A DNA stretch of 64,000 nucleotides from a plasmid, in assembly GCF_988242995.1 (NCBI RefSeq), contig NZ_OZ547044.1. One strand, 5' to 3'. Within the stretch, counting starts at the first letter, position 1. Each line of letters begins with the position of its first letter. Shown piece by piece: positions 24,001 through 27,000 of the stretch. Made by a program: the position numbers.

Positions 24001-27000
24001 ATTCCTTTGGGGGTTTTATCCCATTTGAATATGGTTTTCTGATCTATTATTTCCGCATCAAATGCCATAAGTGATAATGCGATCTTGAAAGTTGAATCTG
24101 GTGCCATTTGCGTTGCACACTTTGCTTTATTGAATTGAGCAATTTCAGCGTTTGTGGATGCATCGTAAAGTAAAAAACAACCTTCAGTTCCTTCAAATAA
24201 TGGAGATGCAACAGTAGAGATATCTGTTGATGCACTGGCGCTGCTGTAGATAATATTTGCAATTATTAAAAAAATAGCGAAGTTGATATGTATTGTGTTT
24301 TTCATAATAAGTATTGGTTTGGTAAAGGGCTTAATTTTAACGGCTAACAATTAATGAGGCTCCGGGTTCGCCCAACGTTTGACATGAGGGGCGGCCAAGG
24401 GCGCCAGCCCTTGGACGTCCCCCTCGATGGAAGGGTTAGGCATCACTGCGTGTTCGCTCGAATGCCTGGCGTGTTTGAACCATGTACACGGCTGGACCAT
24501 ATGGGGTGGTTACGGTACCTTGCCTCTCAAACCCCGCTTTCTCGTAGCATCGGATCGCTCGCAAGTTGCTCGGCGACGGGTCCGTTTGGATCTTGGTGAC
24601 CTCGGGATCATTGAACAGCAACTCAACCAGAGCTCGAACCAGCTTGGTTCCCAAGCCTTTGCCCAGTTGTGATGCATTCGCCAGTAACTGGTCTATTCCG
24701 CGTACTCCTGGATCGGTTTCTTCTTCCCACCGTCCGTCCCCGCTTCCAAGAGCAACGTACGACTGGGCATACCCAATCGGCTCTCCATTCAGCATTGCAA
24801 TGTATGGAGTGACGGACTCTTGCGCTAAAACGCTTGGCAAGTACTGTTCCTGTACGTCAGCAAGTGTCGGGCGTGCTTCTTCTCCGCCCCACCACTCGAC
24901 GATATGAGATCGATTTAGCCACTCATAGAGCATCGCAAGGTCATGCTCAGTCATGAGGCGCAGTGTGACGGAATCGTTGCTGTTGGTCACGATGCTGTAC
25001 TTTGTGATGCCTAACTTTGTTTTTGCGTTGCTCATGATGTCTAACTCCCAATTTGTGTAGGGCTTATTATGCACGCTTAAAGGCACTGTTGCAAAGTTAG
25101 CGATGAGGCAGCCTTTTGTCTTATTCAAAGGCCTTACATTTCAAAAACTCTGCTTACCAGACGCATTTCGCCCAGGGGATCACCATAATAAAATGCTGAG
25201 GCCTGGCCTTTGCGTAGTGCACGCATCACCTCAATACCTTTGATGGTGGCGTAAGCCGTCTTCATGGATTTAAATCCCAGCGTGGCGCCGATTATCCGTT
25301 TCAGTTTGCCATGATCGCATTCAATCACGTTGTTCCGGTACTTAATCTGTCGGTGTTCAACGTCAGACGGGCACCGGCCTTCGCGTTTGAGCAGAGCAAG
25401 CGCGCGACCATAGGCGGGCGCTTTATCCGTGTTGATGAATCGCGGGATCTGCCACTTCTTCACGTTGTTGAGGATTTTACCCAGAAACCGGTATGCAGCT
25501 TTGCTGTTACGACGGGAGGAGAGATAAAAATCGACAGTGCGGCCCCGGCTGTCGACGGCCCGGTACAGATACGCCCAGCGGCCATTGACCTTCACGTAGG
25601 TTTCATCCATGTGCCACGGGCAAAGATCGGAAGGGTTACGCCAGTACCAGCGCAGCCGTTTTTCCATTTCAGGCGCATAACGCTGAACCCAGCGGTAAAT
25701 CGTGGAGTGATCGACATTCACTCCGCGTTCAGCCAGCATCTCCTGCAGCTCACGGTAACTGATGCCGTATTTGCAGTACCAGCGTACGGCCCACAGAATG
25801 ATGTCACGCTGAAAATGCCGGCCTTTGAATGGGTTCATGTGCAGCTCCATCAGCAAAAGGGGATGATAAGTTTATCACCACCGACTATTTGCAACAGTGC
25901 CACTTCGACGACTACCTGCTGCCGGCCGAGAAGTTCGCCGCACTCAAGCGCGAGCAGGCCCTGCCCCTGGCGATCAACCCGAACAGCGACCAGTACCTGG
26001 AAGAGCGTTTGCAGCTGCTGGACGAGCAGTTGGCCACCGTCACCCGCCTGGCCAAGGACAACGAGCTGCCCGATGCCATCCTCACCGAGTCAGGGCTGAA
26101 AATCACCCCGCTGGATGCGGCGGTGCCGGATCGGGCGCAGGCGCTGATCGACCAAACCAGCCAGTTACTGCCGCGCATCAAGATCACCGAACTGCTGATG
26201 GACGTGGACGACTGGACGGGCTTCAGCCGCCACTTCACCCACTTGAAGGACGGGGCCGAGGCCAAAGACAGGACGTTGCTGCTGTCCGCAATCCTCGGTG
26301 ATGCGATCAACCTCGGGCTGACCAAGATGGCCGAGTCGAGCCCCGGCCTGACCTACGCCAAGCTGTCCTGGCTGCAAGCCTGGCACATCCGCGACGAAAC
26401 CTATTCGGCGGCCTTGGCCGAGCTGGTCAACCACCAGTATCGCCACGCCTTTGCCGCCCACTGGGGCGACGGCACGACCTCATCCTCCGATGGCCAGCGC
26501 TTCCGCGCGGGTGGCCGGGGCGAGAGCACCGGGCACGTCAACCCGAAGTACGGTAGCGAGCCGGGACGGCTGTTCTATACCCATATCTCCGACCAGTACG
26601 CGCCGTTCAGCACCCGCGTGGTGAATGTCGGCGTCCGCGATTCCACCTATGTGCTCGACGGCCTGCTGTACCACGAGTCCGACCTGCGGATCGAGGAGCA
26701 CTACACCGACACGGCCGGCTTCACCGATCACGTCTTTGCCCTGATGCACCTGCTAGGCTTCCGCTTCGCGCCGCGCATCCGCGACCTCGGCGAAACCAAG
26801 CTGTACGTGCCGCAGGGCGTGCAAGCCTACCCGACGTTGCGCCCGCTGATCGGCGGCACCCTGAACATCAAGCACGTGCGTGCCCACTGGGACGACATCC
26901 TGCGCCTGGCCAGCTCGATCAAGCAGGGCACCGTCACCGCCTCGCTGATGCTGCGCAAGCTCGGCAGCTACCCGCGCCAGAACGGACTGGCCGTGGCCCT

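Follow-up and report, generated by a model that had tools for sequence, protein, structure and literature searches.

The window that we have analysed, a 64,000-nucleotide stretch of a plasmid (contig NZ_OZ547044.1), carries an aac(6')-Ib-cr gene next to a copy of IS26, an insertion sequence. In our reading of this locus, to which we give a probability of about 95%, the gene belongs to what would be the remnant of an In37-type integron that was captured by IS26; it would be expressed from a hybrid promoter that spans the IS26 junction, and translated from an ATG start codon into an enzyme that carries Trp102Arg and Asp179Tyr. The hybrid promoter has already been published; the locus is clinically relevant and scientifically not new, and its description is useful for the annotation of the replicon and for risk assessment. 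The features of the locus are listed in Table 1.

Table 1. Features of the IS26-bounded module, listed in the direction in which aac(6')-Ib-cr is read, with their positions in the window.
Feature	Position	Strand	Description
IS26 copy 5	25082-25901	-	820 bp; identical DNA is called IS26 in RefSeq
tnp26 CDS	about 25134-25838	-	co-directional with aac(6')-Ib-cr; the right-hand terminal repeat of IS26 abuts the leader
-35 hexamer TTGCAA	25089-25094	-	within the IS26 terminal inverted repeat; found by promoter scan; published IS26-derived -35 (PMC11156391)
-10 hexamer CATAAT	25066-25071	-	in the qacE-derived leader; wild-type allele, not the TATAAT up-mutant
46-bp leader	25036-25081	-	last 37 bp of the 101-bp qacE 5'UTR segment, including GGGAG (25045-25049), and 9 bp (TTAGACATC)
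aac(6')-Ib-cr CDS	24436-25035	-	600 nt; 199 codons and TAA, counted from the ATG
aacA4 attC (59-base element)	24370-24441	-	bounded by the inverse core GCCTAAC (overlapping the stop codon) and the core GTTGGGC
blaOXA-1	23475-24305	-	276 aa; downstream in the same predicted transcription unit; identical DNA is annotated OXA-1
catB3Δ	22896-23337	-	interrupted by IS26, which leaves about 147 of 210 codons
IS26 copy 4	22076-22895	+	closes the module; inverted relative to copy 5

Identity of the gene and its start codon

The original prediction had read the open reading frame as aac(6')-Ib with both of the changes that define the -cr form, and the translation and the alignment to PDB structures agree with it: in the minus-strand translation, GDGRWEE occupies residues 99-105, with Arg102 encoded by CGG (24732-24730), and TTPYGPA occupies residues 176-182, with Tyr179 encoded by TAT (24501-24499). 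An alignment to reference alleles had been named as the comparison that could overturn this reading; when aligned to wild-type AAC(6')-Ib (PDB ID:1V0C), the arginine and the tyrosine fall exactly on Trp102 and Asp179, in the numbering of the 199-aa form, so that both -cr substitutions, Arg for Trp and Tyr for Asp, are present. Among all PDB chains, the top match is wild-type AAC(6')-Ib (1V0C, 2BUE and 2VQY; E = 3e-130, 197 of 199 residues identical), and the residue-by-residue alignment leaves W102R and D179Y as the sole differences over the 199 residues. In the comparison with the NCBIfam profiles, the 199-aa protein scores 428 bits on NF033074 (AAC(6')-Ib family), for which the curated cutoff is 400 bits, and it also scores above cutoff on TIGR04431 and NF012165; by its NF033074 score and its 197/199 identity to 1V0C, the product is a GNAT acetyltransferase of the AAC(6')-Ib family, and, given the NF033074 score and the PDB match, the likeness is not due to chance.

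RefSeq gives the identical DNA, where the gene and both flanks are 100% identical, the name AAC(6')-Ib-cr5 (WP_063840321.1), which is also the name that the exact 184-aa sequence carries in the protein collection; the exact 184-aa and the exact 199-aa sequences are each recorded on about 1000 contigs. CARD/RGI labels the 600-bp ORF as AAC(6')-Ib-cr6, at 98.99% identity. Judged from its sequence, the gene is aac(6')-Ib-cr (NCBI allele AAC(6')-Ib-cr5), a known, common and well-studied gene, and nothing contradicts this identification. Antisense ORFs of 81-113 aa that lie within the gene have no supporting evidence, and we have taken them as mechanical ORFs of G+C-rich coding DNA.

The start of the protein is annotated differently from the ORF that we have considered so far: RefSeq (PGAP) and AMRFinder place it at an internal GTG at 24990 (555-bp CDS, 184 aa) and not at the ATG at 25035; on the minus strand, the curated GTG start thus stands against an upstream ATG that has a Shine-Dalgarno sequence derived from qacE. 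The DNA of AAC(6')-Ib-cr5 (WP_063840321.1) is the same as ours, and only the annotated start differs (GTG and 184 aa in the entry, ATG and 199 aa in our ORF). We consider it most likely that the ATG is used rather than the GTG, with translation beginning 9 nt after the qacE-derived GGGAG (25049-25045) and yielding a 199-aa protein, of which MSNAKTKLGITK is the N-terminal stretch that is peculiar to the ATG-started form. The predicted duplex between the Shine-Dalgarno region and the 3' end of the 16S rRNA has an energy of -6.8 kcal/mol at the ATG, against -0.4 kcal/mol at the GTG; the score at the ATG lies at about the 12th percentile among arbitrary 20-nt windows of the module, and is therefore supportive, not decisive.

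That the protein is instead made from the GTG, with the ATG and the 15 extra N-terminal residues left untranslated, seems unlikely to us, although several observations speak for it: the 555-bp CDS is what both PGAP and AMRFinder annotate, the original aacA4 cassette contains the GTG, 3' of a GTTAGGC relic, while the ATG belongs to foreign leader DNA, and the profiles NF033074 and TIGR04431 cover residues 17-199 only. Against these observations, the GTG lacks the upstream pairing that GGGAG offers to the ATG, the crystallised constructs 1V0C, 2BUE and 2VQY contain the full 199-aa sequence, and only the 199-aa form agrees with the established numbering of residues 102 and 179. The 101-bp segment is reportedly what supplies the start codon of the 199-aa protein, which is said to be an experimental conclusion reached by Raherison and colleagues in 2017 and which counts against the GTG start; a literature search that coupled 'Ib-cr' with '199 amino acids' has returned no match. 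The use of both starts, with one isoform of 199 aa and another of 184 aa, is a reading of the sequence layout that appears to us quite improbable; if it did occur, the qacE-derived N-terminal extension of 15 residues might affect the level or the activity of the enzyme. Whichever codon is preferred, the question of the start is a matter of annotation and leaves the identification of the gene unaffected.

The promoter at the IS26 junction

The terminal inverted repeat of IS26 copy 5 (GGCACTGTTGCAAA) starts at 25082, and therefore the stretch between IS26 and the ATG (25036-25081) measures exactly 46 bp, in line with the original prediction. On the strand of the gene, the promoter scan has found TTGCAA (25094-25089), a spacer of 17 nt and CATAAT (25071-25066), with 9 of 12 consensus matches, so that a -35/-10 pair does span the IS26 junction, where the original prediction had proposed to look for one; in the scan of 24300-25300, this site and a version of it shifted by one base are the only two matches. 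An outward-facing TTGCAA in the terminal repeat, placed 16-18 nt from a -10-like hexamer of the adjacent DNA, is the arrangement of an IS26 hybrid promoter. The expectation that IS26-associated sequence supplies the promoter holds in part: the -35 hexamer is IS26 DNA, while the -10 hexamer, the likely transcription start and the Shine-Dalgarno sequence lie in the 46 bp that are not. A promoter located wholly inside IS26 was rejected, only the -35 hexamer being IS26 DNA.

The origin of the 46-bp leader has been examined by aligning it with the L003 plasmid, where the gene is still located behind intI1/attI1, and with the sequence that precedes qacEΔ1 in this same integron. In the intI1-linked array of L003, the aac(6')-Ib-cr gene is identical to that of the window (0 mismatches) and is preceded by 101 bp that are identical to the qacE 5'UTR, from the cassette boundary G/TTAGA to GGGAG; the leader of L003 and the region upstream of qacEΔ1 share an identical run of 102 bases (G and the 101 bp), and the leader of the window begins at offset 65 of this run. 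The segment, called qacE-101, is fused to aac(6')-Ib-cr and to some other cassettes (PMC8876359). As the alignment also shows, CATAAT precedes both the gene of the intI1-linked integron and qacEΔ1. In the intI1-linked context (L003, 6560-7100), the same scan has found no sigma-70-like site; the scan is too strict even for the integron promoter Pc, and therefore this null result shows only that CATAAT occurs there without a good -35. By eye, the ancestral sequence at the -35 position in L003 is TGCTTT, at 17 nt from CATAAT, with 1 of 6 consensus matches, while TTGCAA has 4 of 6.

These comparisons are consistent with the following sequence of events: IS26 would have inserted inside the 101-bp qacE 5'UTR segment that preceded the cassette, taking away intI1/attI1 and the Pc promoter of the integron; by this insertion, TTGCAA, which faces outward in the IS26 terminal repeat, would have come to lie 17 nt upstream of CATAAT, so that the two hexamers would form a hybrid sigma-70 promoter; and this promoter would drive the joint transcription of aac(6')-Ib-cr and blaOXA-1. 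At an identical junction, the transcription start has been mapped to the hybrid promoter by 5'-RACE (Dulyayangkul et al. 2024, PMC11156391); the same study reports that the IS26 position and the hexamers are the same in all isolates, and that a C-to-T change in the -10 hexamer, giving TATAAT, increases AAC(6')-Ib-cr about 4-fold and OXA-1 as well. For the replicon studied here, we take promoter activity, transcription start and enzyme phenotypes to be those described in the publications on the identical sequence.

Transcription of the gene mainly by read-through from tnp26, or from another upstream promoter, is the alternative to the hybrid promoter: tnp26 lies immediately upstream on the same strand, and in 24300-25300 no intrinsic terminator has been found, either between tnp26 and aac(6')-Ib-cr or after the gene. 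With tnp26 co-directional and no terminator-like site, some read-through transcription may therefore occur; as the main source of the transcript, read-through is very improbable, with the published 5'-RACE start of the identical junction located at the hybrid promoter and a single C-to-T change in the -10 hexamer sufficient to raise both AAC(6')-Ib-cr (about 4-fold) and OXA-1 (PMC11156391). A scan of 21500-26500 against Rfam (E <= 0.1) has found no structured RNA or riboswitch.

Substrate specificity and resistance

The role of Trp102Arg and Asp179Tyr in the acetylation of ciprofloxacin and norfloxacin is established (Robicsek 2006, Vetting 2008 and Maurice 2008, summarised in PMC12061968). 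The product would accordingly be a GNAT aminoglycoside 6'-N-acetyltransferase in which the two changes allow N-acetylation at the piperazinyl nitrogen of ciprofloxacin and norfloxacin, with the loss of some amikacin activity. The enzyme has been reported to raise the ciprofloxacin MIC 4-fold, a rise that R102W/Y179D reverses; reversion of both residues lowers the ciprofloxacin MIC and raises that of amikacin (PMC11156391). By analogy with this published material, aac(6')-Ib-cr is expected to lower the susceptibility of the host to ciprofloxacin, norfloxacin, tobramycin, kanamycin and amikacin, and co-transcribed blaOXA-1, which is co-regulated with aac(6')-Ib-cr (PMC11156391), contributes to piperacillin/tazobactam non-susceptibility. 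The level of resistance is set by the promoter allele and by copy number (PMC11156391); following that study, with a wild-type -10 hexamer and one gene copy, resistance to amikacin and to piperacillin/tazobactam would hinge on the overall copy number, for example that of the plasmid.

A further claim, that a residue of IDQLLANAS (residues 114-122 of the 199-aa protein) may define a sub-variant, did not survive the alignment to 1V0C: the region does hold known specificity-determining residues, with GIDLSLANAS in the specificity variant AAC(6')-Ib11 (PDB ID:2PR8) carrying Leu-Ser against the wild-type Gln-Leu, but GIDQLLANAS is the wild-type sequence, present in 1V0C and in the window alike, so that the sub-variant is not real, and, with no differing residue beyond 102 and 179 over 199 aa, a separate sub-variant of altered aminoglycoside specificity can be set aside as practically impossible. 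Wild-type AAC(6')-Ib (1V0C, 2BUE and 2VQY) shares Gln116-Leu117-Leu118 with our protein and differs from it in having Trp102 and Asp179 in place of Arg and Tyr.

The module, its surroundings and its published relatives

From outer end to outer end, the module IS26-aac(6')-Ib-cr-blaOXA-1-catB3Δ-IS26 occupies 22076-25901 (3826 bp). IS26 copy 5 has 14-bp terminal repeats at 25082-25095 and 25888-25901, differs from the other six 820-bp copies of the window at 0-2 positions, and encodes a transposase of the IS6 family (NF033587, 275.6 bits); copy 4 has 1 mismatch to its reverse complement. The 3' end of the aac(6')-Ib-cr cassette has the inverse core, the core and the imperfect hairpin of an attC site, with a folding energy of -23.3 kcal/mol as single-stranded DNA (z = -4.26, with 0 of 200 shuffles as good); at its 5' boundary, the cassette is not intact: IS26 stands in place of the initial 64 bp of the 101-bp leader, and of all that lay upstream of it. 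With these 64 bp, attI1, intI1 and Pc removed by IS26, the unit is therefore not mobilisable by the integrase at its 5' end. The blaOXA-1 product scores 648.7 bits on the OXA-1 family profile NF000388 (cutoff 580), while catB3Δ matches positions 1-155 of 210 of the profile NF000490, below cutoff, and is described in RefSeq as an incomplete CatB-related O-acetyltransferase that is missing its C-terminus. The frame of catB3Δ runs about 35 codons into IS26, forming a chimeric ORF of 182 aa (22789-23337, minus strand), which is probably a non-functional by-product.

The module is called a composite transposon in the literature. Copies 4 and 5 are inverted and not in the direct orientation of an IS26 pseudo-compound transposon or translocatable unit, and the 8-bp outer flanks differ (TATCGAGA against ACTTCGAC), with no target-site duplication; therefore the module is not a directly repeated IS26 pseudo-compound transposon, and the classic composite form, in which directly repeated IS26 copies come with a duplicated target, was likewise rejected, neither feature being present. 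E. coli p4_1_1.1 shows this inverted layout as well. An inverted IS26 pair does not fit the directly repeated structure that is usually invoked for translocatable-unit amplification; with the copies inverted, we see a slim chance that amplification of the module would need a route other than simple translocatable-unit formation. In the window, the gene is present in a single copy, and no second, amplified copy of aac(6')-Ib-cr has been found.

The host replicon, a Klebsiella-type IncF plasmid, bears qnrB1, aac(3)-IIe, tet(A) and blaKPC-2 in addition to the module. Its F-type backbone (8-10381: traI, traX, finO, the repA leader and repA) matches Klebsiella pneumoniae IncFII/IncFIB plasmids, e.g. 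NZ_OV408203.1, at 100% identity, and repA ends directly at IS26 copy 1. Seven full 820-bp IS26 copies, which start at 10365, 15775, 18656, 22076, 25082, 39382 and 61000, are spread over 10365-61819 in both orientations and differ by 0-2 bases; a lone IS26 terminal repeat at 11434-11447 suggests a truncated eighth copy. The same IS26 array holds qnrB1 (37917-38561, plus strand), which adds to aac(6')-Ib-cr a second quinolone mechanism that is plasmid-borne, as well as aac(3)-IIe (21172-22080, minus strand) and tetR(A)/tet(A) (27734-29689), the latter next to a truncated transposase gene of the TnAs1/Tn1721 type. A Tn5403-family transposase gene occurs in two copies (32612-35509 and 39611-43108, plus strand), of which the second, as a mechanical ORF, runs out of IS26 copy 6 (39382-40201); the pair suggests an IS26-mediated duplication or rearrangement. 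A Tn4401-type element (about 47300-56800) holds blaKPC-2, ISKpn6, the istA/istB genes of ISKpn7, tnpA and tnpR; the protein encoded by blaKPC-2 (48876-49757, minus strand) is identical to WP_004199234.1, and the window therefore also carries a carbapenemase.

At least 1009 PLSDB plasmids, mainly from Klebsiella and Escherichia, cover the module to at least 80% at a single place, and among the PLSDB matches listed it is 100% identical; a 155-bp probe over IS26, leader and gene, for which at least 80% coverage was required, has found the junction in 450 of 5426 complete E. coli genomes, and 714 identical NCBI entries have been reported (PMC11156391). As far as the sequence tells, this is the most common genetic context of a very common gene, without departure from what has been published.

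Among the closest published relatives is the transposon of Dulyayangkul et al. 2024 (PMC11156391), which has the same IS26 insertion point, the same TTGCAA-17-CATAAT arrangement, the same gene order and the same truncation of catB3; compared with the material of that study, CATAAT is wild-type in the window, where the gene occurs once. The length of the unit is given there as 3699 nt, against the 3826 bp that we have measured, a discrepancy of 127 bp, and the IS26 copies are inverted in the window, while the text of that study gives no such statement. Another is the In37-type class 1 integron cassette with qacE-101 (PMC8876359): the gene and the 3' part of the leader are identical in the window, where the 5' portion has been lost to IS26.
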